NCBI GenBank assembly: GCA_023267375.1
Contig: JAHFNJ010000003.1
Span: 28,579 to 92,578 of the forward strand
Direction of reading: 5' to 3'
Length of the DNA: 64,000 bases
From: Candidatus Nomurabacteria bacterium
GTDB lineage: Bacteria > Patescibacteriota > Minisyncoccia > Phycocordibacterales > UBA9973
The notes beneath the pieces were generated by a model. The model saw only the letters and a list, made by a program, of their open reading frames with translations. It was not told where the DNA came from and did not search any database. Shown piece after piece: positions 1 to 61,275 of the stretch; the stretch's first letter is position 1; each line of letters opens with the position of its first letter. A program made the position numbers and the translations under genes.

Positions 1-223
1 ATAGGAGACCAACCTGTCTCACGCACCTACCATCACTTATACTTTCGACGAAGAAAATATAAACGATTTTTCACACATTACTGTGTGGATTGGACTATAA
101 CTTCATCCTTTCGGATGTTTGACATTTAGTCTCTACGGGCATTTATTTTATGAATTTCACAGAAGAGGCAAGTAACTAATTTTACTCACCTTCAAAAATT
201 TAAATTACTAAAAAGTAATTTCG

Positions 224-298
224 TGGGAGCTACCGGGATCGAACCAGTGACCTTCAGATTATCAATCTGACGCTCTGGACCAGCTGAGCTAAACTCCC
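224..298 (-). tRNA. tRNA-Ile (anticodon GAU), discriminator A73, CCA not encoded
   Basis: Reverse complement GGGAGTTTAGCTCAGCTGGTCCAGAGCGTCAGATTGATAATCTGAAGGTCACTGGTTCGATCCCGGTAGCTCCCA folds as a canonical cloverleaf: 7-bp acceptor, D-stem GCTC/GAGC, anticodon loop TTGATAA, T-loop TTCGATC. It lies inside the 23S insertion. Confidence 0.85.
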
Positions 299-526
299 AA
301 TAACAAAGAACAAAATTTTCCTCTGTGAAACTCACAAAACTTATTTCCCTCGGTATTACCCTCGCTTGCGCGTTCGGGTTCCACCGATACTAGTCAACTT
401 CCTACACTATATTTCTATAATGCACCGCCGTGAAGAACGCCACAGCATTCTTACGGTCTAATCTCTTGTTTTAAAAACAATTGCTTTCACAATCTCTCGA
501 CGGGTTCAAACGGGTTCAGAACTCTA

Positions 527-600
527 GTTGCTAGGGGCTAGTTGCTAGGGGCTAGTGAAATTCACTAGAACCTAGGCACTAGAAACTAGAACCTAAAATG
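527..600. repeat. CTAG-rich ~75-bp repeat, copy 1, containing palindrome CTAGTGAAATTCACTAG
   Basis: Its reverse complement aligns over ~70 bp at ~80% identity with 39165-39237 (ttaggttctag…ttctagtgaattYcactagcccctagYaactagcccctag). Confidence 0.6.
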
Positions 601-917
601 CTGAACGGTTTGAACCCAGCTCGCGTATCTTTTTAATTGGCGAACAGCCAAACCCTTGGTAGCTTCTCCACCACCAGGATAAGATGAGCCGACATCGAGG
701 TGCCGAACTCCGCCGTCGCTATGAACGCTTAGGCGGAACTAGCCTGTTATCCCTAGAGTAGCTTTTATCCCTTAATCTTCCACCGCGTCTAATGCGGATG
801 GTCGGTTCACTTGGTTCTGCTTTCGCACCTGCTCGTCATGTACGACTTGCAGTCAAGCCAGCTTGTGCCCATACACTATCGGCACGGTTTCCATTCGCGC
901 CTAGCTGACCTTTAAAG

Positions 918-959
<42 letters not shown>

Positions 960-1267
960 CCCACCAGAAACTGTCTCTTCGAGTTTTTGCCTCGAGGATT
1001 AGAACATATCATAAAATAGAGTGGTATTTCACTGACGAGTAGAATACAGCCGAAACCGTAAACATCAAACCTCTCCCACCTATGCTACGCAATTTTCCAA
1101 TATGCTCAATATCAAGTTGCAGTAAAGCTTCTAGGGTCTTTTCGTCTATCTGCAGGTAACCGGCATCTTCACCGGTACTGTATTTTCACCGAGCTATTCT
1201 CCGAGACAGTTCCCCAGTCATTACACCATTCGTGCACGTCTGAACTTACCAGACAAGGAATTTCGCT

Positions 1268-1470
1268 CAACTATTCCTCTCAGTTGGACTCTCTCTTCAT
1301 CCCGATCGAAATCGGGAGCATGGCGTTGGTCTCTCGTTAACCATGAACGGACTAGCTGCACATTGCTGCGCAGTAGGTAGCGTTGTTTGTTGTAATGATT
1401 TTAAATTAATTGTTTATCGTTTTCTATAACAGTCCCAGTCCTTTGGTGCACATATAAATACATGTACCAA
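1268..1470 (-). other. ~203-nt insertion in 23S at the L1931-equivalent site; putative small group I intron or IVS
   Basis: E. coli-contiguous 'GGTCCTAAGGT|AGCGAAATTCC' is split: plus strand has 'gaatttcgct' (to 1267) then 203 nt then 'accttaggaccgttatagttacggcc' (from 1471). On the RNA strand the upstream exon ends in U and the insert ends in G. Confidence 0.45.
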
Positions 1471-1505
<35 letters not shown>

Positions 1506-3056
1506 CAGGGCTTGTATCAGTCAGCTGTTCTCTGCCTTGCGGCAGAAAACAACCGCCGATAGTTAACCTTCTGGCATTGGTCAGGTGTCACCCCCTATAC
1601 ATCCTCTTACGAGTTCGCAGGGAGCTGTGTTTTTGATAAACAGTTGCCAGGGATACTTTCGCTGCGGCCCCCCGCTACTTTAGATACTTCTATCATAAAG
1701 TAACGGAGAGTTTTTTGTCTCTTACTTTCTTACTCTCCCACTTTTTGGAATTACCCAAAGTAGCGGGGGGCAAGCCTTATTCCGAAGTTACGGCTGCTTT
1801 TTTGCCGAGTTCCTTGGAGAATACTCACTCGTTCGCTTTGGTCTACTCGACCTGACTACCTGTGTCGGTTTACGGTACGGTTTCTGAAATATTAAGCTTA
1901 GAGATTTTTCTTGGAAGCGTGCTTTATAGAATCATCATGGGCGAACCCACAAATTTATGCTCTGCTTGAATCTTCACATTAAAGTGATTGTATCCGGATT
2001 TTCCTAGACACCATTCTTACAGCACAAACAGAAATCCAATAATCTGCTCTATATACTACACTCCGTCCTCCCATCGCATATTTTAGAAGTCATGGAATAT
2101 TAACCATGTATCCATCGGGTGCGGCTTTCGCCATCCCCTTAGGACCGACTAACCCTTGGCTGATCAACATCGCCAAGGAAACCTTAGTCTTTCAGCGTGC
2201 AGGGATCTCACCTGCATTGCGGTTACTTGTGCCAACATTCTTACTTCCGCACGCTCCAGCATGGGTCACCCCTTTGCCTTCAACGCAGAGCGGAATACTC
2301 GCCTACCACTTATTCCGACCTAAGTCGGAAAAAATCCTCAGTTTCGGTACTATACTTAGCCCCGATTATCTGCGGTGCGAAATCTCTTGATGAGTGAGCT
2401 GTTACGCTTTCTTTCAAGGATGGCTGCTTCTAAGCCGACCTCCTCATTGTTTAAGAAATTTCACCTCCTTGACTTGCACTTAGTATAGATTTAGGGACCT
2501 TAAATAGAGATCCGGGCTGTTTCCCTTTTGACTAACGGAGCTTAGCCCCCGTAGTCTAACTGCTATGTTTTAACTTCTGGTATTCGGAGTTTGATAGATT
2601 TAGCGAGATTTCTCCCTGTCCAAATCTTCCAGTGCTCTACCCCCAGAGGGAACACATAACGCTAGCCCAAAAGCTATTTCGGCGAGAACCAGCTATTACC
2701 AGGTTCGATTAGCTTTTCACTCCAACCCACAAGTCATCCGAATGCATTGTACGACATACCGGTTCGGACCTCCTCTACCATTTCTGGTAGATTCATCCTG
2801 CTCATGGGTAGCTCACCTGGCTTCGGGTCTTATGTATGCTACTTATTGTTCGCGCTATTCACACTCGGTTTCCCTATGACTCCATTTTTTTAAAAACTTA
2901 GTCAGCAACATACATAAACTCGTTGGCTCATTCTTCAATAGGCACGCCGTGACGGTCTGCACTTCACGCAGAAAAAATTCTGCACAAAGTGCAAACCGCT
3001 CCGACTCCTTGTAAGCACATGGTTTCAGATCTATTTCACTGTCCTTATCGGACTAT

Positions 3057-3092
<36 letters not shown>

Positions 3093-4174
3093 ATCTCTAA
3101 GAGTATTTAGCCTTGCCGGTTAGTTCCGGCGGATTCCTCCGAGCTATTCGTGTCTCGAAGTACTCAAGAACGACAACAGAAGAGTCAGTAATATTTTCAC
3201 GTACGGGGCCATCACCCTCTTTGGCGTTGCTTTCCAGCAACTTCCGTTAATATACTGTTTTGTAACTCTCCTCGAATAAACGATGTTGTCGCCTTACAAC
3301 CCCGATTCTTTTTCTTGCGAAAAACAATCGGTTTGGGCTTCTCCGCTTTCGCTCGCCGCTACTTACGGAATACAAATTTGTTTCTTTTCCTCCAGGTACT
3401 GAGATGTTTCACTTCCCTGGGTGAGCGTCACTCTCTTGCGAGAGTAATTACTGAGGTTTACTCAGTAGGGTTTCCCCATTCAGAAATCTCCGGATCAAAG
3501 GTTACTCGGCACCTCCCCGAAGCTTATCGCAGCCACGTTACGTCTTTCATCGCCTCTTAGAATCTAGGCATCCACCATATGCTCTTGTTTCCTATTAGGA
3601 AACTTAAAAACCACATATATTTCTACAGACCGCTCCGTAGAGTATATGCATACACTTTACTTTTTTTGCCCTATCCTCGATGCGTCTGAAAAGACCCTAA
3701 AAACTTCCTGAAAATACAAGAAGTAATTGCACCGGAATAGGATTTACCCAACATTATTGCTTTTAAAAGCAATAATGTTATGGCTTATTTGTCAAAGAGA
3801 CTGGCATTCGATCATTATCACTACTTACTAAAAACTTCAGCCGAGGGAACTAAAAAATCGCCTTTCGGCGACATCTCAAAACGCAAGGTTTTGATTAGTA
3901 TCGCCTCGGTTTCTGTAATTTAGAAGTAATATTCATACAGCCCAAAGAGTATATAGGAAGCGAAAAGCGATGTCAAGTTTCTCTCGGTAGTCCCACCAAA
4001 AAGCACGAATATCTGCCTGCTGGCAGATTTCTCTACTCGAAACGCCTTTCTGCGTAAGGCTTTTTGCGGGACTACCTCGCTCTGGTGAGCAGAGCCTTAT
4101 TTCTTGATTAATGACTTCGATTAAGTTATCCACCATTTTATTCACATGCACAAATCTCTCTTTTTATGGCAAGC

Positions 4175-41424: not shown

Positions 41425-42867
41425 TTAATCTTTACGGGCAAAAAGCGGAGTCGCTGGCTTTTTATTTTCTTTAATAAGTTTTTTAAGTGTTGCATTAGTC
41501 TCAGGCATAATTGGGTTTAACATTCGAGCAATCGTATACAGTTGTACTACTAATTCAGAAATAATTGTTCTCCCTTTCTCTGCATCAACCTTCACTACTT
41601 TAAATGGCTCTGTTTCCTGGATCTTCTTATCGAGCATCTGAATTTCATTCCAAATATAATCGACTGCTTTCTGAATTTCAAATTTCTCGAGTAAATCAAA
41701 AAAGGGTTGTGGAATAGATTGCTCTGGGATTGATGGACACGAGTCAAGATGCTTCTCAGAGAGAGCCAGAATACGCGAAGCCAGATTCCCCAAACCATTT
41801 GCGAGGCCCGCATTGTACGCTTCTTTGAATTTTTCCATAGTCATATCCGAGTCTTCAAACGCGGAGAGTTCCCGCGCGACATAGTAGCGGAGCGCGTCAG
41901 TGCCGTATTCAGCGACAATATCGTATGGATTGATTACATTACCGAGTGACTTCGACATCTTCTGACCACCAGAATTGATGAAACCATCAATCACGATATG
42001 TTTTGAATTCGGTAGCCCTGCCGCCATCAACATCGCCTGCCACATCGCCGACTGCTGGCGAAGATTGTCTTTACCGCAGTATTGGACCGGTGTTCCATTT
42101 GCCCAGAATTTTTCAAAGCTTACAGTATCTTCTGGCCAACCGATTGTAGAGATATAGTTCACCAGCGCATCAAACCACACGTACATGACCTGTTCCGGAT
42201 CACCAGGCACTTCCACTCCCCAACTCATTTTTGATTTAAGACGTGAAATGGAAAAATCTTGCAGCCCTCGTGCCACAAATGCTTTTATCTCATTGAAACG
42301 AAAATCAGGCACAACAAAGTCGGGATTGTTCTCATAAAATTCAAGCAGTGGTTTTTGGAATGCTGAAAACTTGAAGAAGTAATTTTCTTCGTCAATAAGT
42401 TCAATTTCTTTGTTGGGGTGAATCGGGCAGCGACCATTATCATCGAGCTCGCTATCAGTCTTTTCAAGTTCGCAGCCAACACAGTATTTCACCTGATACT
42501 GCTTCTTGTAGATGTAACCGTTCTTTTCTACGCGTCGCCAGAATTCTTGCGCGGCTTGTTCGTGATGTGTGTCAGTCGTACGAACAAAATGAACATCTTC
42601 TGATATTCCCAAAAGTCCTTTGAGGCCGCGGAATTTCTCCGCATACTCATCAACATATTCTTTCACTTCCCTTCCGGCCTTCTTCGCATCAGCCAAAAGC
42701 TTCTGCCCGTGCTCATCGGTACCGGTATTGAAAAACACCTCATGGTCAGTGAGTTTTTTATACCGCGCAATAATATCCGCACGGATAAGTTCCATCGCAA
42801 ACCCTACATGAGGATCTGAGTTTACATATGGAAGTGTCGTAGTAATGTAAAATGATTTCTTTTCCAT
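41425..42867 (-). CDS. metG: Methionyl-tRNA synthetase (short form)
   Basis: 480 aa; 'TTLPYVNSDPHVGFA…FFNTGTDEHGQKL'; zinc knuckle 'CVGCE…GRCPIH'; 'KMSKSLGNVINP'. Confidence 0.8.
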   Translation of the reverse strand: MEKKSFYITTTLPYVNSDPHVGFAMELIRADIIARYKKLTDHEVFFNTGTDEHGQKLLADAKKAGREVKEYVDEYAEKFRGLKGLLGISEDVHFVRTTDTHHEQAAQEFWRRVEKNGYIYKKQYQVKYCVGCELEKTDSELDDNGRCPIHPNKEIELIDEENYFFKFSAFQKPLLEFYENNPDFVVPDFRFNEIKAFVARGLQDFSISRLKSKMSWGVEVPGDPEQVMYVWFDALVNYISTIGWPEDTVSFEKFWANGTPVQYCGKDNLRQQSAMWQAMLMAAGLPNSKHIVIDGFINSGGQKMSKSLGNVINPYDIVAEYGTDALRYYVARELSAFEDSDMTMEKFKEAYNAGLANGLGNLASRILALSEKHLDSCPSIPEQSIPQPFFDLLEKFEIQKAVDYIWNEIQMLDKKIQETEPFKVVKVDAEKGRTIISELVVQLYTIARMLNPIMPETNATLKKLIKENKKPATPLFARKD

Positions 42868-45989: not shown

Positions 45990-47312
45990 TTAATTTAACT
46001 TCTCTTTGATGTAGCCAACCAATTCATTCATTTGGACTCGTTCCTGTTCGCCCGTATCACGGTCACGAATAGTTACTGTGTCTAGCAGTTCAGGTTTTTC
46101 ACCAAGAGTATCGAAGTCGATAACGATACACCATGGCGTGCCGATTTCATCCTGACGGCGATAGCGCTTGCCGATATTGCCGTTGTCGTCCCACATCACA
46201 CGACCGAATTCTTGTTTGAGTGTCGTATAGACTTCGCGAGCTTTCGCTATGAGTTCTGGTTTATTTTTAAGAAGCGGAGACACCGCGCAAATCACCGGTG
46301 CAATGCTTGGCTTGAATTTCAGATATGAGCGCACTTCTCCACCCTTCTCGTCTTCTGCGTATGCAGAGAGGAGTAATGCGAGCACCAAACGATCAACACC
46401 GATCGAAGGCTCAATCACATGTGGTGTTATTTTTTCTTTTGCTTCTTCGTCTTGATATTCAACGTTGTGGTTTGATAAGTCAAAATTGCCGCGATACACC
46501 AAACCGAATAGTTCTTTCTGTCCAAATGGATACTCAAACTCGAAATCAATCGTGCGTTTTGAGTAGTGAGCGCGATCAGCTTCAGCAATTTCCACTTCAT
46601 GAACAAGCGAAGTATCCAAACCAAGCTCACTGACAAATTCGTTCAAATTTTTCTGCCATAAGGTAAACGCATCTTGCCAGTCACTTTCCTTTACAAAATA
46701 TTCCACTTCCATCTGCTCAAATTCACGAACACGGAAAATAAAATCACGCGGGGTTATTTCATTGCGGAATGCTTTACCAATCTGACCGATACCGAATGGC
46801 AACTTTGGATGAAACGAATCAACAACATTTTTGAAGTTGGTGAAAATACCCTGTGCTGTTTCAGGGCGAAGATATACAGTTGAGGCAGAATCTTCCACGG
46901 CACCAATTTTGGTTGAGAACATCATGTTGAACTGACGCGCTTCGCCGAGCGCACCGTCACAGTCAGGACATTTTGTAGGATCTTCAAGCTGGTCGGCGCG
47001 AAAGCGATGCTTGCACTTACTGCATTCAACTAACGGATCCGAAAATCCAGCCACGTGGCCAGAAGCCTTCCAGACCTCGCTGTTCATCAAAATTGCAGCG
47101 TCTACCTCATACATATCATCACGGCTCGCTACAAACTTTTTGCGCCACGCGTCCTTAATGTTGTTTTTGAGGGCCACGCCAAGCGGGCCGTAGTCGTAGG
47201 TTCCGCCCAGTCCCCCATATATCTCAGAGCCCGGAAATACAAAACCACGTCGTTTTGACAACGACACTATTTTGTCCATTAATTCATTATCTTCCTGTGT
47301 TTTTTTAGCCAT
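45990..47312 (-). CDS. glyQS: Glycyl-tRNA synthetase (dimeric class II)
   Basis: 440 aa; 'RRGFVFPGSEIYGGLGGTYDYGPLGVALKNNI'. Confidence 0.85.
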   Translation of the reverse strand: MAKKTQEDNELMDKIVSLSKRRGFVFPGSEIYGGLGGTYDYGPLGVALKNNIKDAWRKKFVASRDDMYEVDAAILMNSEVWKASGHVAGFSDPLVECSKCKHRFRADQLEDPTKCPDCDGALGEARQFNMMFSTKIGAVEDSASTVYLRPETAQGIFTNFKNVVDSFHPKLPFGIGQIGKAFRNEITPRDFIFRVREFEQMEVEYFVKESDWQDAFTLWQKNLNEFVSELGLDTSLVHEVEIAEADRAHYSKRTIDFEFEYPFGQKELFGLVYRGNFDLSNHNVEYQDEEAKEKITPHVIEPSIGVDRLVLALLLSAYAEDEKGGEVRSYLKFKPSIAPVICAVSPLLKNKPELIAKAREVYTTLKQEFGRVMWDDNGNIGKRYRRQDEIGTPWCIVIDFDTLGEKPELLDTVTIRDRDTGEQERVQMNELVGYIKEKLN

Positions 47313-51910: not shown

Positions 51911-52513
51911 CTAGGAATTACCTTTTATATTTTCGACAAGTTCTGGAAATGTTTCTTGGCGAAAGTGGCCACGATCTGAAAAAGTAAGGAGCGTCGCTTC
52001 TGGAAAAACTTTTTTATATTTCAGGGCTTCAGCTGGCAGCACTGCAGTATCATCGTCACTTTGATAGATAAAAATCTTTGGGACTTGGGCAGATACATTT
52101 TCGAGATTCTCTTTGAGTTTAAAATCCCCTAGCGACTCAACCGACTCATCATCAAATGGCGCAGCTACTAAGTGCATACTCTCTATCTTTTTTAGTAAAG
52201 TATTCTCAGAGAGATACTTTGCCAAAAAGATGCCCCCAAGCGAGTGCCCCACAAGTGTCACACCGTCCTGTAAAAATGGGACAATTTTATCAAAAAATAT
52301 TTTCCACTCGAGATACTTCGCATTCATATCATTTGGCATCTCTGGAGTAATAACCTCATATTCAGGCAAATAGTCAGCCAACGTGCGTCGCCATCGTTTT
52401 CGAGTTATCCCCTCAAGAGTCAGTTCATAACTACGCAAAAAAGTAAGGTATGCTTCGTATGTATCAAAAACGTCTCCTCCGTGGATTATTAAAACTTGTT
52501 TCTTTTGGTCCAT
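51911..52513 (-). CDS. Alpha/beta-fold serine hydrolase (YdeN/RBBP9-like)
   Basis: 200 aa; 'VLIIHGG…', nucleophile elbow 'GHSLGG'. Confidence 0.65.
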   Translation of the reverse strand: MDQKKQVLIIHGGDVFDTYEAYLTFLRSYELTLEGITRKRWRRTLADYLPEYEVITPEMPNDMNAKYLEWKIFFDKIVPFLQDGVTLVGHSLGGIFLAKYLSENTLLKKIESMHLVAAPFDDESVESLGDFKLKENLENVSAQVPKIFIYQSDDDTAVLPAEALKYKKVFPEATLLTFSDRGHFRQETFPELVENIKGNS

Positions 52514-52517
52514 AAAT

Positions 52518-53096
52518 TTAGTTAAGTTTTAAAACTGCCTCCAAGACTTCTGGGAGCTCTAAACACTGATTCGTACTCCCGCTGAAATGCCCTCGTCCTG
52601 ATAATATTATAATTTTAGAACCAAGCTTGTCCCTATAGTCATCCACATTATCAAGAGGTACAAATGGATCATTATCAGAAAAAATAGCTACGCTTTTAGG
52701 AAGATGTGTTTTTACTTTTTCAAGACTAAGAGGTGTGGTCATCCATTCTTTTTGAACACTTTGCTCGGCATCATCGCTTCCTATATTCGTCAGTCGTTTA
52801 AAAAATCCTGCAACAAAGACAGCACCACCAACTTGCACTCCCTCAGGTAGGGCTTCCAGATAACGAGCAATAGTCTGACAACCCATACTGTGGCCAACAA
52901 AATACATATTCTCATCAGGAGTAGAAGCAACTTCTTGTAATTTAGGCACCCAATTATGAATGCGGGGAGTCGCTGCATCTGGAAGCTGTGGCACTATCAC
53001 CTCAAAACCTGTTGCTTCAAGTTCTTTTTTTAGCCAAGGAAACCAGCCTTCTTCTGGATACCCGTCCCACCCATGTACTATAAATACTCTTTTCAT
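52518..53096 (-). CDS. Alpha/beta-fold serine hydrolase (YdeN/RBBP9-like), tandem paralog
   Basis: 192 aa; 'VFIVHGWDGYPEEGWFPWL…', 'GHSMGC'. Confidence 0.65.
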   Translation of the reverse strand: MKRVFIVHGWDGYPEEGWFPWLKKELEATGFEVIVPQLPDAATPRIHNWVPKLQEVASTPDENMYFVGHSMGCQTIARYLEALPEGVQVGGAVFVAGFFKRLTNIGSDDAEQSVQKEWMTTPLSLEKVKTHLPKSVAIFSDNDPFVPLDNVDDYRDKLGSKIIILSGRGHFSGSTNQCLELPEVLEAVLKLN

Positions 53097-53740
53097 AATT
53101 GAATTTCTTTTATTTTATTTGCTAATGCATTTCCTAACGAGATATTACCCGCTTCATCTAAGTGAACCCCCTCACCATCGGCTGTAGTACAAAATGCTGC
53201 TGCGTCAAAAAACATATACTTTTCTTCCGCACAAAATGCCTTGTATATGTCTTTCAATTTCTTTGATTTATATTCTGCCTCTGACCCAAAAATAGTACTC
53301 ATTGCCTCATCAAGAACTACTTGATCACTGCGAATTACCGGCGGAGAAATAATCATGACTTTCGGTTCCATCTCAATAGATAAGTTTTTACACCAAATAC
53401 TTATCTCATCTTTATATTTTGGCAAACTCTGAGCAATTTCTTCGGTTGTCTTGGTATCTTTATTATTACAATCATTGGTCCCTAGAAAAATACACACGAG
53501 GTCAACAGGTAAATGACTCCCTAAAATTGGTCCAAATTGCGCTAGGCCATCTCTGTTAGGGAAAAATCCATTCTCACCGGAGAGGGTCCTTGCACGCAAC
53601 CCTTCATCAATTATCCGGTACTCACCTCCTAGTAATTGTTCAAGTACCCCTATAAAATTCTTGGCACGCTCATATCGCTTTGGAGTTTTAGGCATTTTCC
53701 CATAAACAAGAGAATCGCCATAAATAAGGATAGATTTCAT
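53093..53740 (-). CDS. SGNH/GDSL-family hydrolase
   Basis: 215 aa; 'ILIYGDSLVYG' (GDSL block I), 'GTND', 'DGVHLD' (catalytic His block). Confidence 0.7.
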   Translation of the reverse strand: MKSILIYGDSLVYGKMPKTPKRYERAKNFIGVLEQLLGGEYRIIDEGLRARTLSGENGFFPNRDGLAQFGPILGSHLPVDLVCIFLGTNDCNNKDTKTTEEIAQSLPKYKDEISIWCKNLSIEMEPKVMIISPPVIRSDQVVLDEAMSTIFGSEAEYKSKKLKDIYKAFCAEEKYMFFDAAAFCTTADGEGVHLDEAGNISLGNALANKIKEIQL

Positions 53741-54001: not shown

Positions 54002-54931
54002 TTACAATAACTTCTCGATTGTTTCAAGCAACTCCGCAGGATTATCTAGAATCGCAGCCGGGTTCCCTTTTTGAAGTGTTTCTCGCTCTTGAAAACCCCA
54101 AGTGACGGCGATAGTCTTAACGCCACATTCTGTGGCATCACGAATATCTCCAAGCGTGTCGGTAATAAACACGACGTTAACCGGGGCAACTCCTTCTCGT
54201 TCTAAAATCATCTTAATTTTTTTTACCTTACTAATATGTACATCAGAACCTAAAACATCCTTAAAATAAGCTGCGGCCTTTTCTTTCTCCAAAAAAGTCC
54301 GGATGCTGCTACTCATACTTGAAGACACGATTGCGAGTATGTATTTCTGCGTGAGTACCGAAATAGTACCGAGTAAAATATCGTGTATGGAAAGAGTAAT
54401 TAATCCATTTTCATAATGAGTATCAAAATCTGGTGGACGTTTGTACCCCTCTTCTACTCGGAGTTTTTCAATCACCTCTTCCCAGCTGTAGCTCGTCAAT
54501 TCTTTATAGCGCTCTTTCGTCAGACCGCTATTCGCATCCTGGTGAATCTTGTAACAAAGATCAGCAGTATTCACGAGCACGCCGTCGAAATCGAATAAAA
54601 CTAATTTTTTTGGTTTACTTTGAAAATCAAAACCAATCAATTTAACAGTAGTATCGTCATCTATATTTTCATAATACTTACCAAGACTAGCGTACATTTC
54701 ATCCTTCGACGAATATTTACCATGCATATCCTCATTGGTTAATTCTCCGATGGTTTTCTCTATAAGAGAAGTGATTTTTGCAAAACCAAACTGTTCCCCT
54801 GTTTCAGAATTTACCAAGATGAGATCGTCCCCTATTTTTAAATCTTTATCATCGAATAAACGCCACGTTGAGCGCTTTTCTCCTGATACAATTTTTTGCG
54901 AAAGATCGTTGGTAAATTTAAGAACTTTCAT
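54002..54931 (-). CDS. ASCH (PUA-like) domain fused to HAD-family hydrolase
   Basis: 309 aa; N-terminal 'QKIVSGEKRSTWRLFDDKDLKIGDDLILVNSETGEQFGFAKITS'; C-terminal 'LVLFDFDGVLVNT…' HAD motif I. Confidence 0.6.
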   Translation of the reverse strand: MKVLKFTNDLSQKIVSGEKRSTWRLFDDKDLKIGDDLILVNSETGEQFGFAKITSLIEKTIGELTNEDMHGKYSSKDEMYASLGKYYENIDDDTTVKLIGFDFQSKPKKLVLFDFDGVLVNTADLCYKIHQDANSGLTKERYKELTSYSWEEVIEKLRVEEGYKRPPDFDTHYENGLITLSIHDILLGTISVLTQKYILAIVSSSMSSSIRTFLEKEKAAAYFKDVLGSDVHISKVKKIKMILEREGVAPVNVVFITDTLGDIRDATECGVKTIAVTWGFQERETLQKGNPAAILDNPAELLETIEKLL

Positions 54932-54942
54932 TTTTATGTTTT

Positions 54943-57900
54943 CTACTTTTCAATTGAAATCTCTGCCACACCAGCCTCAACAGAAATATTTTTTGCCGTA
55001 ACCGTTTTCTTGAGTTCGTCGCCAAACGTCGCCGCTAGTTCTTTGTATGAATCTGGGAGCTTAATATTGATGCTGTCGCTTGGCATTAAACCTTTCTGTT
55101 TACGCAAATCTTGAATAGCGCGCACAAGTTCACGGAAATCCCCTTCTTTTTTGAGCTCTGGAGTCATCTCGGGATCAAGTAGGACTTGGTCTTTCAGCGA
55201 ATCACTCTCCACGACTTCTTTCACATTGAGTTCATCTTTTAAAACATCTTTGAAATACGTCTCGAGTTTTATATTTGGCACAGTAACCTTCTGGAGTGGC
55301 TGACGAACAGGAATCCCAGCTTTTTGCCTTTCTTTTAGCCCCATAGATGCGAAGTCCCGAACATTACTCATTTGAGTAATTAATTCTTTTTCCACCTTCC
55401 CACCTTTAGGCCAACTGGAAAGATGCACACTTTCTGTATCTGATTCTGCCCGCAGTTTCAGCCATATATCTTCCGCGGCAAACGGCGCAGCAGGAGCCAT
55501 GATCTGCGCTACTGTTTTAAGCACAAAATAAAGTGTCTGTTTTGCGTCAGCATCCCCTTCTTTGATACGGTCACGTGAACGACGTAAGTACCAAGTAGAA
55601 AGATCATCGATAAAATCTCGAAGTGCACGCACTGGTTCCATAAGTTTGTAACCGTCCAAGCTCTCAGTGGTAAGCGCTACAAGCTGATTAAGTCGAGCAA
55701 GAATCCATTGATCGAGAACATTGCTAGTTTCTAGGTTATAGTTGCTAGTTTCTAGTGAAGGGTCACGATAGAGTTCATAAAATGCCAACACATTGTAGAG
55801 CAAACCGAATACCTGGCGATGCAATTCCATCACTGTTTTCTCATCGTAATTTTTTGAATCCCCTGGCTGGTTCACCGAGTACATCCAAAGGCGCAGTGTA
55901 TCAACACCAAATTTTTCAATCTGGAAAAATGGTTCGACAATGTTACCGATTGACTTCGACATTTTCTTGCCATCTTTATCGAGTAAGTGTCCTAAGCAAA
56001 TCGCATTCTTAAATGGCGTACCGCATTCCATAAGCGTACCGACAGCAAGCAGTGTATAGAACCATCCGCGGGTTTGATCAATAGCTTCAGAAATGAAATC
56101 TGCTGGGTAGCCATGTGATTTTTTGAGCAATCCACTCTTCGGCTGAAAGGTATCTTTGTTTTCAAACGGATAGTGATCTTGGGCAAACGGCATAGAACCA
56201 GAATCAAACCACACATCCATCACTTCTTTTACACGACGAAATTCTTTGCCGTCTTTTTCAAGCACCACTTCATCAATATATGGCCGATGCGGATCAAGCT
56301 CGTAGTTCTCATTGTGCGGAAGTGGGACGAATGGAACATCATAAAAAACAGCATTTTCAATGTAATGAAAATCTTTCTTTCCCCGGATCATATCGAGTGC
56401 CTGCTCAGCACTATACCCATGAGCACCAACGACCATGAGCCAAGCAGGTCCGCCATGGGTCACAATCAAAATATTTTTATTGCTGTATTTTTGTTCTAGC
56501 TCATATAGCAATTCACTTACGCGTTTACGAACATCGCTATATGATTCGCCTCCTGGAAGAACTGCAGAAAAATTATCCGCCGTCTTTGGAAATTTATCAT
56601 GATACTCTTTCCATGTCGTGCCACTAAACGTACCGACACGCATCTCGTGGAGCCGAGCATCCGTACTCACTGATTCCTCAGGCAAGCCAAGAACACCTCG
56701 TACGATATCTGTTGTTTCTTTCGTGCGTATAAACGGTGAGGCAACAATCAAATCTATTTTTTTGTTTTTCAATAACTCTGCCGCTTCTTGTACCTGCGAT
56801 TTTCCATGGTCAGTCAAATGATCGTTTACTGCATCTTGTTTATCGCTGATCAAACCTTGCAAATTATGCTCTGATTCACCGTGACGCATCACGATATAGT
56901 TATTCCCGCTTTTCTTTGTATATTTTTTGAGTGTTTCAAATGAATCAACAACAATGCGCTCGCCATCAGCGTTCTGCCACACTGGCATCGGTGTTCCCCA
57001 GTACCGCTCACGAGAAATCGCCCAGTCTTTCACCTCGCGAATCCACTCGCCGAAACGCCCTTCTTTGATATGAGATGGCTCCCAATTTATCTTTTCATTT
57101 TCAGCGACGAGATCATCCCGAAGCGCCGACATTTTGATGTACCACGAATCGCGTGCGTAGTAGATGAGCGGCGTCTTACAGCGCCAGCAATGTGGATAGC
57201 TGTGCGTGTATTGTTCTTTCGCAAAAAAGTTTCCGTGCTCTTGGAGATATTTCAACACCTCAACAGAAGTCTTGAGACCATTGTCTTCCCTATCTTTTGC
57301 TGGCATTCCCTCGAGACTACCCGTGCCTTTTATAAAATGTCCGGATTCATCAACGAGATGAAATTTCGGCAACCCAACTTTCGAACCAAGCTCGAAGTCG
57401 TCCTGACCGTACATCACGGCTGTGTGCACGATGCCGGTACCATCTTCGGTGTTTACGAAATCTGCCGCGTATACTTTGTATGCGTTTTGTAACTTATCGT
57501 CACCCTTATCCAATTCAGAGAGATATGGATAGAGTGGTTCATATTCCGTGCCACTAAGTTCTTTACCGAAATATCTACCTGATACTTCGTATAAGGTTTT
57601 TTCTGCTCCAGGTTTTGGAGATCCACTAAGAGTCCTTCCAAAAACACCATCACTATTTATTAACTCTAAACCAAAAATTTTATTGACCAAATCCCATGCC
57701 AGGATATAATTTTCTACACCTGAATTGTTTGTAACTTTTACTTTTACATAGTCGATTTTCTCACCCACAGCCAAAGCAACATTCCCAGGCAAGGTCCAAG
57801 GTGTTGTGGTCCATGCAAGAAAATAAGTATTCTCATTTCCGACTACTTTAAATTTCGCGATAACTGACAAATCTTTTACATCTGCATAGCCCTGCGCGAG

Positions 57901-58467
57901 TTCGTGCGACGAAAGGCCAGTTCCACAGCGCGGACACCATGGCACGACTTTGTAATCTTTGTAGAGCAGCCCCCTTTTATCGACATGCGCAAAGACATTC
58001 CAAAGCGATTCAACATAGTTTGTATCAAACGTGTAGTATGCAGATTTTTTATCTACCCAGTAACCGATACGGTCCGTAAATTTTTCCCACTCACCGATAT
58101 ATTCAAAAACAGAATCCTTACATTCTTTATTGAATTGAGCGATACCATACTGTTCGATTTCTTTTTTTGATTTGAGCCCAAGCTTTTTTTCAATCTGAAG
58201 TTCTACTGGTAATCCGTGAGTGTCCCACCCCGCACGTCGTCGTACGTGAAAACCCTGCATCGTTTTATAACGAGGAATGACATCTTTGAATGCGCGTGCT
58301 TCCAAGTGGTGGAGTGCTGGTTTGGCATTGGCTGTTGGTGGACCTTCATAGAACACAAATTCGTCATTGCCAGCATTTCTTTCAACCGACTTTTGAAATA
58401 TATTTTCTTTCTGCCAAAACTCCAAAACCGCTTCTTCTCGAAGCGCTGCTGCTGATTTTTCATTCAT
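54943..58467 (-). CDS. ileS: Isoleucyl-tRNA synthetase with an embedded histidine-phosphatase (PGAM-family) domain
   Basis: '…WDTHGLPVE…WAISRERYWGTPMP… [NYIVMRHGESEHN … ILIVTHGGP] …DVWFDSGSMP…KMSKSIGN…'. Start set at Met 'MNEKS' just after the T-box terminator U-run. Confidence 0.85.
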   Translation of the reverse strand: MNEKSAAALREEAVLEFWQKENIFQKSVERNAGNDEFVFYEGPPTANAKPALHHLEARAFKDVIPRYKTMQGFHVRRRAGWDTHGLPVELQIEKKLGLKSKKEIEQYGIAQFNKECKDSVFEYIGEWEKFTDRIGYWVDKKSAYYTFDTNYVESLWNVFAHVDKRGLLYKDYKVVPWCPRCGTGLSSHELAQGYADVKDLSVIAKFKVVGNENTYFLAWTTTPWTLPGNVALAVGEKIDYVKVKVTNNSGVENYILAWDLVNKIFGLELINSDGVFGRTLSGSPKPGAEKTLYEVSGRYFGKELSGTEYEPLYPYLSELDKGDDKLQNAYKVYAADFVNTEDGTGIVHTAVMYGQDDFELGSKVGLPKFHLVDESGHFIKGTGSLEGMPAKDREDNGLKTSVEVLKYLQEHGNFFAKEQYTHSYPHCWRCKTPLIYYARDSWYIKMSALRDDLVAENEKINWEPSHIKEGRFGEWIREVKDWAISRERYWGTPMPVWQNADGERIVVDSFETLKKYTKKSGNNYIVMRHGESEHNLQGLISDKQDAVNDHLTDHGKSQVQEAAELLKNKKIDLIVASPFIRTKETTDIVRGVLGLPEESVSTDARLHEMRVGTFSGTTWKEYHDKFPKTADNFSAVLPGGESYSDVRKRVSELLYELEQKYSNKNILIVTHGGPAWLMVVGAHGYSAEQALDMIRGKKDFHYIENAVFYDVPFVPLPHNENYELDPHRPYIDEVVLEKDGKEFRRVKEVMDVWFDSGSMPFAQDHYPFENKDTFQPKSGLLKKSHGYPADFISEAIDQTRGWFYTLLAVGTLMECGTPFKNAICLGHLLDKDGKKMSKSIGNIVEPFFQIEKFGVDTLRLWMYSVNQPGDSKNYDEKTVMELHRQVFGLLYNVLAFYELYRDPSLETSNYNLETSNVLDQWILARLNQLVALTTESLDGYKLMEPVRALRDFIDDLSTWYLRRSRDRIKEGDADAKQTLYFVLKTVAQIMAPAAPFAAEDIWLKLRAESDTESVHLSSWPKGGKVEKELITQMSNVRDFASMGLKERQKAGIPVRQPLQKVTVPNIKLETYFKDVLKDELNVKEVVESDSLKDQVLLDPEMTPELKKEGDFRELVRAIQDLRKQKGLMPSDSINIKLPDSYKELAATFGDELKKTVTAKNISVEAGVAEISIEK
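56341..56904 (-). other. Inserted histidine-phosphatase domain within ileS (residues ~543-730)
   Basis: Canonical branch-1 histidine phosphatase signatures 'VMRHGESEHN' and 'VTHGG', ~190 aa, between the IleRS WGTP region and the DVWFDSGS/KMSKS region. Confidence 0.7.
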
Positions 58468-58482
58468 ATTTTTTTCTTGCAT

Positions 58483-58760
58483 AAAAAAAACTCGTCCTCG
58501 CGTAACAATTAATGAATAATTGCAATGCAAGGACGAGTTTCTGCTCGTGGTACCACCTTACTTACTTCTCTTTACCGCTGTATCGGGCTTACCCGCTAGG
58601 ATCTACTCGCCAAATAGCTTTCTGCCTAGAGCCTGCCTGCCAGCAGGCAGGCTCGGAGGTGATTACTCTCCTTAAGCTGTAGTTCCATCATACGAATCAT
58701 CCTAAAAAAAAGCAACCCCATCCGATAAAGGATGGGGCGCAATACTGTTTACTGTGGGAT
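58483..58760 (-). promoter_or_regulatory. T-box riboswitch leader of ileS
   Basis: RNA strand contains T-box consensus 'AAGGUGGUACCACGAG' then terminator 'ACUCGUCCUUGCAUUGC…GCGAGGACGAGU' + U8; UGGU bulge predicts discriminator A, matching the tRNA-Ile in this window. Confidence 0.6.
58703..58738 (-). terminator. Terminator of gene 58766..59455
   Basis: ccccatccgataaaggatgggg plus U-run on the minus strand. Confidence 0.65.
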
Positions 58761-59559: not shown

Positions 59560-61275
59560 TTACATCCTTTCGGGGGCAGTAATACCAAGGAGTGCAAGCC
59601 CACTCTCGAGGACCGTACCGACAGCTGTCGCCAAAGAGAGTTTATACGGGGTCGCATCACTATCATCTAAAATCTTGGTACTATCATAAAAACTACTCCA
59701 AGCACGGGCAAGACTGCCCAAATACGAAGCGATATGATGCGGCGCATATTCCCTGCTTGCACGTAATGCAGTATCGGGGAATCGTGAAAGCAATCGTTCA
59801 AGTACTGTTGTCTGCCATTCTTTTGGAAGTGACGCATCTACTGAAACCTTTTCATTCTGTGCTTTTGCAAGCACTGATTTTACACGCGTCGCACTGTACT
59901 GCAAATACGGCCCAGAATCACCTTCGAATGAAATAGATTTTTCGAAATCGTAAATAATATCTCCTCCAACGGCTTGGCGAAGTATCGAATATTTGAGTGC
60001 ACCGACTCCGACAATCGCACTGACAGTTTCTTTTTCTTCCGCAGTAAAATCACGATCAGCAATTTTTTCCATGATCATCGCTTTTGAATCACGCACAAGC
60101 GACTCGCCAGTAATGATATTTCCTTTTCGAGAACTCATCTTCCCTTCTGCAAAGCGCATCATACCGTGCGTAATATGCTTCATTTTTTCTGCGTACTCTG
60201 GCTTAAGCAATGACATCGCTTTTTCTACCACCTTCATATATTCAGCCTGTTCAACTGCTGTATCGACAATAGAAAGATCAAGATTTTGTTCTTTTGCAAA
60301 TTTGGTCATCGTGAGACCGATTTCTTTTGTCTCGTACGTAGGCAAACCTTGCGAGTTTATGAATACGCGTGTATGAAGCTTTGGATCGTACTTGTCAGCT
60401 TTGAACACAATCGCGCCATCACTTTCTTCAAACACTGGCCCGACATTTTCTTGTACTATCTTTTGCCCAATCGGCGCCATTTCGCTCTCGAAAAAGTAGT
60501 AGTCGAATTTTGTTCCAAGTATCGCGTATAGTTCTTCAAATGCATCGAGTGTTACCTTTCTCCCCCAGTCGTATACCTTATTTATTTCCTCATCGCTCTT
60601 TTCGTAGATTTTTTTATTGATCGCATCAATTTCTTTTTTTGTTTCAGGATCCTCCTCGTATGCTTGCGAACCTTGGGAATAGCACTTACCGATATATTCC
60701 GCTTGCGAAGATGCGGTTGTCAGTTCAGCCGGTGCTGGATTTTTTAGTAAAATATAAATCGCTTTTGCCACATGTGGACCAACATCACCTTGATAGTTTG
60801 CACGTACAGTTTTTGCTCCACTCCATTCGACGAGCCGTGCGAGTGATTCCCCGACCGCATTCGACATAAGGTGTCCAATATGAAATGGCTTGAATGGATT
60901 CGGTTGCGTATATTCCACCATCACTTTTTTGCCTTTCAGGCTTTCATTTTTCCCGAACTCTTTTCCTTCTTTCACAATTTGTCCGATAGTACCAGCAAAG
61001 AATTGCGGGGCAAGATAAAAATTGATAAACCCAGGACCAGCTACTTCCATTTTCGTGATATCCACTGGCTTATTCTTTTCAATTTCAGCCACGATTTTCT
61101 CAGCCAATTCACGAGGATTAACCCCTGCCTTTTTGGCACAGGCAAGCGCTATGTTCGTCGAAAAATCGCCGTGTTCCATGTCGGCTGGATATTCAAGCTG
61201 TATGGTTTCAAAGGGAATTTTAAGGTTTCCGAGAATCCCCTCTAACAATGTGATAATCATCTCTTTCATGCACAA
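59560..61275 (-). CDS. argS: Arginyl-tRNA synthetase
   Basis: 571 aa; 'HIGHLMSNAVGESLARLVEWSGAKTVRANYQGDVGPHVAK'; C-terminal DALR-like anticodon-binding domain. Confidence 0.85.
   Translation of the reverse strand: MCMKEMIITLLEGILGNLKIPFETIQLEYPADMEHGDFSTNIALACAKKAGVNPRELAEKIVAEIEKNKPVDITKMEVAGPGFINFYLAPQFFAGTIGQIVKEGKEFGKNESLKGKKVMVEYTQPNPFKPFHIGHLMSNAVGESLARLVEWSGAKTVRANYQGDVGPHVAKAIYILLKNPAPAELTTASSQAEYIGKCYSQGSQAYEEDPETKKEIDAINKKIYEKSDEEINKVYDWGRKVTLDAFEELYAILGTKFDYYFFESEMAPIGQKIVQENVGPVFEESDGAIVFKADKYDPKLHTRVFINSQGLPTYETKEIGLTMTKFAKEQNLDLSIVDTAVEQAEYMKVVEKAMSLLKPEYAEKMKHITHGMMRFAEGKMSSRKGNIITGESLVRDSKAMIMEKIADRDFTAEEKETVSAIVGVGALKYSILRQAVGGDIIYDFEKSISFEGDSGPYLQYSATRVKSVLAKAQNEKVSVDASLPKEWQTTVLERLLSRFPDTALRASREYAPHHIASYLGSLARAWSSFYDSTKILDDSDATPYKLSLATAVGTVLESGLALLGITAPERM

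Follow-up and report, generated by a model that had tools for sequence, protein, structure and literature searches.

Aminoacyl-tRNA synthetases (aaRS) have been studied intensively, and accessory domains in these enzymes usually signal editing, tRNA binding, localization or signalling. The isoleucyl-tRNA synthetase (IleRS) gene, ileS, encoded on the minus strand of a 64,000-nucleotide stretch of a contig from an uncultured, ultra-small bacterium of the Paceibacteria (Candidatus Nomurabacteria; JAHFNJ010000003.1, positions 28,579 to 92,578; hereafter the window, to which coordinates refer unless otherwise indicated), raises the question of how what appears to be a complete second enzyme came to be nested in a connective peptide (CP) of the catalytic domain of an essential synthetase, and of what it might do there. 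A first-pass annotation, made from the letters of the window, had described the feature as a complete histidine phosphatase domain lying inside the catalytic core of IleRS. The domain and its nesting are borne out by the Pfam PF00300 profile, by the ileS family assignment and by structural models, but the site of insertion is the CP3 subdomain and not the core. The conservation of this arrangement, its recurrence in IleRS and valyl-tRNA synthetase (ValRS) and its variation in copy number are likely to surprise specialists.

The host synthetase and its inserted domain

The ileS open reading frame (ORF; 54943..58530, minus strand) comprises 1195 codons from a listed TTG, with the stop codon at 54943-54945, and continues uninterrupted through the insert. 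An NCBI protein (P0001) is 100% identical to the ORF product and has a length of 1179 aa, which points to M17 (ATG 58480-58482) as probably the real start of a 1179-aa product; both lengths agree with the continuous frame of at least 1,170 aa reported in the first-pass annotation. The ORF product passes the cut-off of the NCBIfam ileS equivalog TIGR00392 (859.8 bits against 621.4), and the closest special NCBIfam models are those of the type-2, MupA/MupB-like IleRS. Pfam recognizes tRNA-synt_1 in two stretches (best match at aa 35-544), together with His_Phos_1, Anticodon_1 and DUF5915. Among solved structures, the best match of the host is Priestia megaterium IleRS2 (PmIleRS2), and the host is closest to PmIleRS2 and TtIleRS2. 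It carries the CP1 editing domain and the C-terminal domains that characterize type-2 enzymes (IleRS2), as well as both class-I signatures: ALHH (aa 72-75; 58306..58317, minus strand), a non-canonical G/AXHH variant of HIGH, and KMSKS (aa 856-860; 55951-55965, minus strand). In an alignment of 120 homologues, H74, H75 and K856-S860 are invariant, and the same holds for the editing-domain and signature residues of the host, which looks, from these residues, like a functional type-2 IleRS.

The family consensus at the first signature is GIHH, against ALHH in the host, both belonging to the G/AXHH class, a variant of HIGH documented as functional in IleRS2 (PMC10485003). The IleRS2 of D. radiodurans has exactly the same ALHH motif and displays a millimolar inhibition constant (Ki) for mupirocin (PMC10485003), from which it is predicted that these IleRS enzymes of the candidate phyla radiation (CPR) are hyper-resistant to mupirocin. 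The G/AXHH enzymes described to date differ from the host in having no insertion in CP3 (PMC10485003).

The N-terminal IleRS part (aa 17-537; 56920..58482, minus strand) contains the first Rossmann half, the CP core, the CP1 editing domain, CP2 and the first half of CP3, with the motif DWAISRERYWG (aa 502-512; 56995..57027, minus strand) forming the CP2-CP3 linker. The C-terminal part (aa 743-1195; 54946..56304, minus strand) comprises the rest of CP3, the second Rossmann half with DVWFDSG (56197-56217, minus strand), the KMSKS motif, the anticodon-binding domain and the type-2 C-terminal domains; it is covered by Pfam Anticodon_1 and DUF5915 and aligns to PmIleRS2 residues 484-1008. The synthetase blocks quoted in the first-pass annotation (ISRERYWGTPMP at aa 505-516, HRPYID at 748-753 and DVWFDSGS at 772-779) and the two phosphatase signatures that it placed between them (VMRHGESEHN at aa 547-556 and LIVTHGGP at aa 688-695) are all found where it had located them.

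The alignment to PmIleRS2 breaks at residue 477 and resumes at 484, as the query runs from 537 to 743, and therefore about 205 aa (538-742) stand where there was a loop of about 6 aa. The insert so defined (56305..56919, minus strand) consists of the His_Phos lobe, a conserved N-linker 'KKSGNxY...' and a conserved C-linker '...F(V)PLPHNExYELD', and fully contains the segment of about 190 aa (aa ~543-730; 56341-56904) that had been delimited earlier. Following published nomenclature (PMC7955072; PMC7191050), the stretch from the DWAISRERYWG linker to DVWFDSG is CP3, and it contains the insert. In yeast IleRS, the DWxxSRxRYWG-type CP2-CP3 linker is part of the pocket that binds the CCA end of the tRNA (PMC7955072), and a zinc knuckle is present in the CP3 subdomain of the T. 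thermophilus enzyme (PMC7191050), whereas the Rossmann/HUP core of PmIleRS2 is made up of residues 40-168 and 513-632 (PMC10485003). By alignment, the insert is hence nested in CP3, itself an insertion within the catalytic domain, and lies outside the strands of the Rossmann core. The cysteines of the CP3 hairpins have been lost in this lineage ('QNADGE' and 'EKDGKE'), and a few relatives (e.g., P0166) retain CxxC pairs flanking the same insertion point. There is no sign of a recent transfer of the insert, since its GC content (0.43-0.44) is the same as that of its flanks.

The identity of the inserted domain is supported by a strong match to Pfam His_Phos_1 (PF00300) at aa 546-712 (56395..56895, minus strand; E=1.8e-36, 126.1 bits against a cut-off of 21.7), which covers profile positions 2-167 of 194 and falls between the two tRNA-synt_1 halves. 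Ten positions of the insert (N543, Y545, R549, H550, N556, G576, S598, R602, E629 and H692) are invariant in the 120 homologues (58-67% identity), and six of them constitute the full branch-1 catalytic set of two arginines, a nucleophilic histidine, an asparagine, a general-acid glutamate and a second histidine. On the minus strand, these residues map to the RHG motif (R549, the nucleophile H550 and G551; 56878..56886), the phosphate-pocket N556 (56863..56865), the second phosphate-binding arginine R602 (56725..56727), the general acid/base E629 (56644..56646) and the second catalytic histidine H692 of the 'THGG' motif (56455..56457). Among 106 embedded copies representing clusters at 50% identity, the catalytic six are retained in 96-100%: R549 and H550 in all 102 ungapped copies, H692 in 103 of 104 ungapped copies and E629 in 101 of 106, with aspartate in the other 5, and R602 is likewise kept. 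Pairwise identity is 0.45 for the insert against 0.72-0.76 for the IleRS core, so that, outside the active site, change in the insert greatly outpaces that in the host. The persistence of the catalytic six in a domain that otherwise diverges rapidly is the pattern expected if the active site is under selection within an accessory domain.

Structure prediction bears out the view of the insert as a separate lobe. The full-length AlphaFold2 model, computed with the 120 homologues, has a mean pLDDT of 87.7 and a pTM of 0.81, with values of 90-98 over the insert and confident linkers on both sides; modelled on its own, the insert yields a compact phosphatase lobe (pLDDT 91.5, pTM 0.90). The predicted model adopts the alpha/beta fold of the family, and its best Foldseek matches are PspA (4ij5/4ij6), GpgP (4qih, Rv2419c), PhoE (1h2e/1ebb), the riboflavin-pathway HFP (9mmh) and CobC (6e4b), with TM scores of 0.70-0.76 at 22-25% sequence identity. 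When normalized by target, TM scores are 0.53-0.64 for cofactor-dependent phosphoglycerate mutases (dPGMs), against 0.69-0.77 for phosphatases of about 200 aa. The insert is mildly acidic (pI 6.0, net charge -5). On the joint evidence of profile, catalytic residues and model, the insert is a complete and compact branch-1 histidine phosphatase domain of the PhoE/PspA/GpgP type.

Conservation, recurrence and origin

In a collection of 5.8 billion proteins (NCBI, JGI, ENA and Logan), PF00133 and PF00300 occur together in all of the 120 best clusters, which are named as Nomurabacteria, Paceibacterota, Minisyncoccia or Patescibacteria. Furthermore, a scan of one genome per GTDB species revealed, in at least 322 species genomes, an encoded relative of the insert bounded by IleRS junctions, under names that include Paceibacteria, Nomura-, Adler-, Zambryski-, Taylor- and Vogelbacteria, and Parcubacteria. 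When the insert alone was searched against 1.84 billion cluster representatives, 49 matches fell below 1e-30, and 97 of the best 150 insert matches have IleRS flanks, with N-terminal halves that are down to 35-40% identical to that of the host. Judging from the divergence of these halves, the nested architecture is old and lineage-wide.

These observations bear directly on the possibility that the feature is an artefact, whether produced by chimeric assembly, by a frameshift that fused two genes or by an element resembling an intein, in favor of which stands the unusual length of the gene and nothing else. A chimeric contig, which the first-pass annotation had kept in view, and a frameshifted fusion are both ruled out by the continuity of the ORF, its uniform GC content and the recurrence of the architecture in all 120 clusters and in at least 322 independent species genomes. 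An intein-like selfish element is ruled out by a fold that is His_Phos and not HINT, and by junctions that offer no intein nucleophile: the N-junction reads 'TKKSGN' and the C-junction 'PHNEN', and the family consensus following PHN is E or D, not Cys, Ser or Thr. An artefactual origin of any of these kinds is thus extremely improbable.

The association of the domain with synthetases takes several forms. Some IleRS display a tandem pair at the CP3 site (P0168, P0235 and P0221), and others present a second copy between the catalytic and anticodon-binding domains (P0200, P0169 and P0229), at a point corresponding approximately to aa 921-937 of the window protein. The domain is also found in ValRS, of which one (P0132) carries four tandem phosphatase copies. 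Among the matches listed in a search from this protein, 70 of 119 ValRS clusters (P0132 and P0280-P0397), named as Gracilibacteria or Peregrinibacteria, contain one to three copies, and a Nomurabacteria ValRS in the same list contains none. The ValRS copies precede 'QDEDTLDTWFSS' and occupy the same CP3 loop as in IleRS. In approximately 26 of the 70 ValRS hosts, or about a third, no copy retains the full hexad: the general acid, and sometimes the second histidine, has been replaced, and the Arg/His pocket is kept, as illustrated by the degenerate hexads RHNRSN and RHNRAH, which maintain the RH...R phosphate pocket. In addition, a threonylcarbamoyl-AMP synthase (TsaC/YrdC; P0194, 387 aa) encoded on a Logan contig, which scores above the TIGR00057 cut-off and is represented by a single cluster, has the same phosphatase subfamily at its C-terminus; TsaC is an enzyme of tRNA modification.

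Homologues of the insert also exist as separate genes encoding free-standing proteins of about 190 aa that are 37-40% identical to it. In four loci, such a gene lies directly downstream of argS (L081, 8001-8570; L082, 2107-2679; L084, 581-1147; and L085, 2181-2762, each numbered within its own locus). In the first three, it overlaps or abuts argS and adjoins a convergent ileS that has no insert and in which only about five codons ('...GSIEEMEKMSGQKVTDLHRPYIDE...') occupy the site of insertion, whereas the L085 contig stops once the phosphatase gene has ended. The loop of such insert-less relatives measures 6-8 aa and reads MSGQKVT in the L081 enzyme. In the window, argS (59560..61275, minus strand; identified with Pfam) is co-directional with ileS and upstream of it, an arrangement that recurs in 54 of the 80 loci bearing the insert. 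The hosts and partners of the domain, as far as the top 150 relatives show, are only tRNA and aminoacylation genes (IleRS, ValRS, the argS operon and TsaC), and a second His_Phos copy was found neither in the window nor within ±6 kb of ileS in the 80 related loci. The phosphatase is tied to the argS-ileS neighborhood, whether free or nested, and because it keeps to this neighborhood in both forms, the distribution suggests that the insert originated through the capture of a neighboring gene. In a neighbor-joining distance tree of 148 copies of the domain, free and embedded forms are intermingled in a star-like topology that does not settle the direction between the free and nested states. A preserved active site, recurrence in IleRS and ValRS with up to four copies, and a neighboring free gene are normally the mark of a real functional link.

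What the nested phosphatase may do

From the architecture, fold, insertion site, conservation, distribution and synteny described above, we infer catalytic activity, a substrate class and a reason for tethering that together would make the protein a bifunctional enzyme, in which IleRS bears an active small-molecule phosphatase lobe and the synthetase serves as its carrier or partner. This reading is given about an even chance (roughly 0.5). The lobe would be rigidly attached at the tip of the CP3 subdomain. By analogy with the mechanism of the family, a phosphomonoester would be held by R549, R602, N556 and H692, H550 would attack the phosphorus to form a phospho-histidine intermediate, and E629 would protonate the leaving group and then activate water. 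The substrate would presumably be a small phosphorylated metabolite or nucleotide, other than 3-phosphoglycerate, and its conversion by the lobe would take place next to, and not inside, the sites of aminoacylation and editing. As the synteny suggests, a free-standing phosphatase gene of the argS-ileS neighborhood may have been recruited into ileS, where the large monomeric class-Ia synthetase would serve either as a carrier that is expressed constitutively or as a partner in some task linked to translation. An autonomous small-molecule phosphatase is favored because the structural relatives of the insert are small-molecule phosphatases, its pI is 6.0, untethered forms exist and the domain has multiplied in tandem. 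The free-standing homologues evidently function untethered, and the net charge of the insert gives no support to a basic RNA-binding module, the insert being unlike the RNA-binding modules typically appended to synthetases.

Several points weigh against this interpretation. The curated phosphatase models all score far below their cut-offs (94 bits against 162.9 for CobC TIGR03162, and 64.9 against 350 for PspA NF045917), and homology therefore does not fix specificity. Rigid tethering would seem to be of little benefit for an enzyme of diffusible substrates, yet the linkers are highly conserved; together with the CP3 loop shared by IleRS and ValRS and the closeness of the base of that loop to the CCA pocket, they would be no less compatible with a cis-acting role. 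The domain can, moreover, persist without full catalysis, because about a third of the ValRS hosts are degenerate and have nonetheless kept the pocket.

The cis-acting role alluded to above would make the lobe a third active site, operating on the acceptor end of the tRNA or on the synthetase itself and coupling repair to charging, with a 3'-phosphate, an opened 2',3'-cyclic phosphate, a toxin-laid 3'-pyrophosphate or a phosphorylated serine of the KMSKS loop as putative targets. It would be consistent with the placement of the insert in CP3, a subdomain that begins with the linker contributing to the CCA pocket (PMC7955072), with the use of an identical loop by two paralogous editing synthetases, with linkers whose conservation and confident modelling imply a fixed orientation, with the exclusive association of the top 150 relatives with genes for tRNA functions and aminoacylation, and with the invariance of the catalytic set. 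The nearest structural relatives are, however, all small-molecule phosphatases and the domain is acidic; the free homologues and the TsaC fusion speak against a need for delivery in cis, TsaC being a protein that does not bind tRNA, and a single precise geometry is difficult to square with arrays of two to four copies and with a second site remote from the CCA pocket. A link to defence finds no echo in PADLOC, which returned no match for the insert, for a free homologue or for the ASCH-HAD gene that neighbors ileS. On balance, a cis-acting lobe appears rather unlikely. The more specific proposition that the class-Ia synthetases of the CPR (IleRS in Paceibacteria, ValRS in Gracilibacteria and Peregrinibacteria) possess a third, CP3-mounted catalytic site that takes the acceptor end or a bound nucleotide in cis and clears a blocking 3'-phosphate or pyrophosphate before charging is to be regarded as unlikely; were it true, the synthetase would have its own integral step for repairing tRNA ends or countering toxins, a kind of aaRS quality control known nowhere else. 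Every host or partner of the domain (IleRS, ValRS, the ArgRS operon and TsaC) is also an enzyme that converts ATP into X-AMP and pyrophosphate (PPi), which would accord with a lobe hydrolysing a product of the adenylate reaction (PPi, AMP or another nucleotide) at its source and pulling aminoacylation forward in organisms of minimal metabolism. The best curated sequence model, that of the CobC alpha-ribazole-5'-phosphate phosphatase, is nucleotide-like, and histidine phosphatases can hydrolyse phosphoanhydrides, as E. coli AppA does. We know, however, of no branch-1 member that is a dedicated pyrophosphatase, the CobC cut-off is missed, the domain occurs in only one or two of about 20 synthetases, and the hydrolysis of AMP would be wasteful for nucleotide-scavenging cells, all of which renders product removal quite unlikely.

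The degenerate ValRS hosts raise the possibility that the lobe is mainly structural or ligand-sensing, either promoting dimerization or assembly or sensing a phosphate ligand so as to modulate the synthetase, in which case catalysis would be dispensable. Many members of the histidine phosphatase family are dimers, and the far faster evolution of the insert relative to its host also speaks for such a role. The existence of non-catalytic insertions in aaRS is, in turn, illustrated by CAAD (PMC4893482). Against this stands the IleRS clade, which keeps all six residues, E629 included, invariant or nearly so over deep divergence, a signature of retained catalysis that makes a non-catalytic lobe improbable. 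A very improbable alternative, and one that can be rejected on curated cut-offs and structural fit, is that the lobe is the dPGM of the cell, hitch-hiking on IleRS. Weak matches to archaeal short dPGM (73 bits for the insert and about 98 for free homologues) and the name 'probable phosphoglycerate mutase' given by JGI to one free homologue point in that direction, but the equivalogs remain far below cut-off (73.1 bits against 225 for NF038349, 41.1 against 261 for PRK03482 GpmB, and 40.8 against 316 for the bacterial dPGM PRK01295), solved dPGMs align worse than compact phosphatases, and the presence of up to four copies in ValRS is implausible for a glycolytic enzyme. Furthermore, what we take to be the substrate residues of dPGM that follow the catalytic Glu and His, in E. 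coli GpmA numbering, are not kept, the insert reading 'EMRVG' instead of 'ERHYG' and 'HGG' instead of 'HGN'. Automated annotation labels these proteins as 'class I tRNA ligase family protein', and KEGG-style reconstructions of CPR genomes could mis-score the embedded domain as a phosphoglycerate mutase. Should tRNA ends or products of aminoacylation prove to be the targets of the phosphatase, translation in these organisms of minimal genome would have a new level of quality control; if the domain is only carried by the synthetase, it would provide a second independent case, after CAAD, of class-I synthetases as preferred scaffolds for domain capture.

Known systems and surrounding genes

The closest parallel to this arrangement is CAAD, a stand-alone membrane protein of the Curt1 type that has been recurrently captured by monomeric class-I aaRS of cyanobacteria (ValRS, IleRS, LeuRS, GluRS, ArgRS, MetRS and CysRS), with fusion of a neighboring gene documented for GluRS (PMC4893482). 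Both cases involve the phylum-restricted, recurrent and internal capture of a stand-alone domain by large monomeric class-I aaRS, usually in a single host per genome; in both, ValRS and IleRS are the principal hosts and there is evidence for a neighboring gene as the source. They differ in that the module captured here is soluble and constitutes a whole enzyme whose active site is intact, that its main site is CP3, inside the catalytic domain, and that tandem copies occur. The insert is therefore not a CAAD-type insertion, since it has the soluble His_Phos fold in place of the two-transmembrane-helix Curt1/CAAD domain, and only the evolutionary pattern is common to both.

Among phosphatases, PhoE/YhfR, PspA, Rv2419c, CobC (6e4b and 6nru) and HFP are all free-standing, in contrast with the nesting in a synthetase observed here, and the combination of 22-26% identity, missed cut-offs and nesting means that their substrates cannot be transferred to the insert by homology. 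After CobC, the phosphatase model that scores highest with the insert is NF005567 (88 bits, missing a cut-off of 326), which describes the actinobacterial RNase HI/acid phosphatase of the Rv2228c type. There, too, a PhoE/CobC-like phosphatase is joined to a nucleic-acid enzyme for reasons that are likewise unclear, but the fusion with RNase H is end to end and not a nested insertion. As regards IleRS with an additional enzymatic domain, NCBIfam curates one such family, NF040702 (ileS_w_GNAT), in which the extra domain is a GNAT; the window protein is not a member (303.8 bits against a cut-off of 1999), and NCBIfam has no curated model for IleRS with His_Phos. The first-pass annotation had not recognized the architecture as a described one, and this agrees with its absence from full-text literature searches, from AARS Online and from recent work on IleRS phylogeny and structure that was read with this question in mind, comprising the 2023 IleRS2 paper (PMC10485003) and a 2026 IleRS preprint. 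Neither the dataset of the former nor the latter, which annotated 96,219 IleRS sequences, mentions phosphatase inserts in the CPR. Automatic Pfam annotations do display this pairing of domains, which has hence gone unreported without being hidden.

Eleven bases downstream of ileS, the window contains a gene for a fusion of ASCH and HAD_2 phosphatase domains (54002-54931, minus strand), ASCH being a putative RNA-binding or N4-acetylcytidine amidohydrolase fold. This gene was rejected as a conserved partner, as it follows ileS in only 4 of 80 related loci. Past it, at 51911-53740 (minus strand), three small hydrolase genes follow one another, encoding two Ser_hydrolase paralogues (RBBP9/YdeN-like) and a GDSL/SGNH lipase-like protein. 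A 23S rRNA gene (505-3598, minus strand) measures 3094 nt against the 2925 nt of its model and likely contains extra sequence, and a tRNA-Ile(GAT) gene (223-298, minus strand) is located downstream of the 23S gene and not in a 16S-23S spacer. The rRNA genes appear to be unlinked, because neither 16S nor 5S genes are found in the 64-kb window. Besides ileS, the window encodes three other synthetases, namely the ArgRS described above, a class-II enzyme with an HGTP anticodon domain (45990-47312, minus strand) and MetRS (41425-42867, minus strand); none of the three bears an extra domain, and MetRS is short, at 480 aa.

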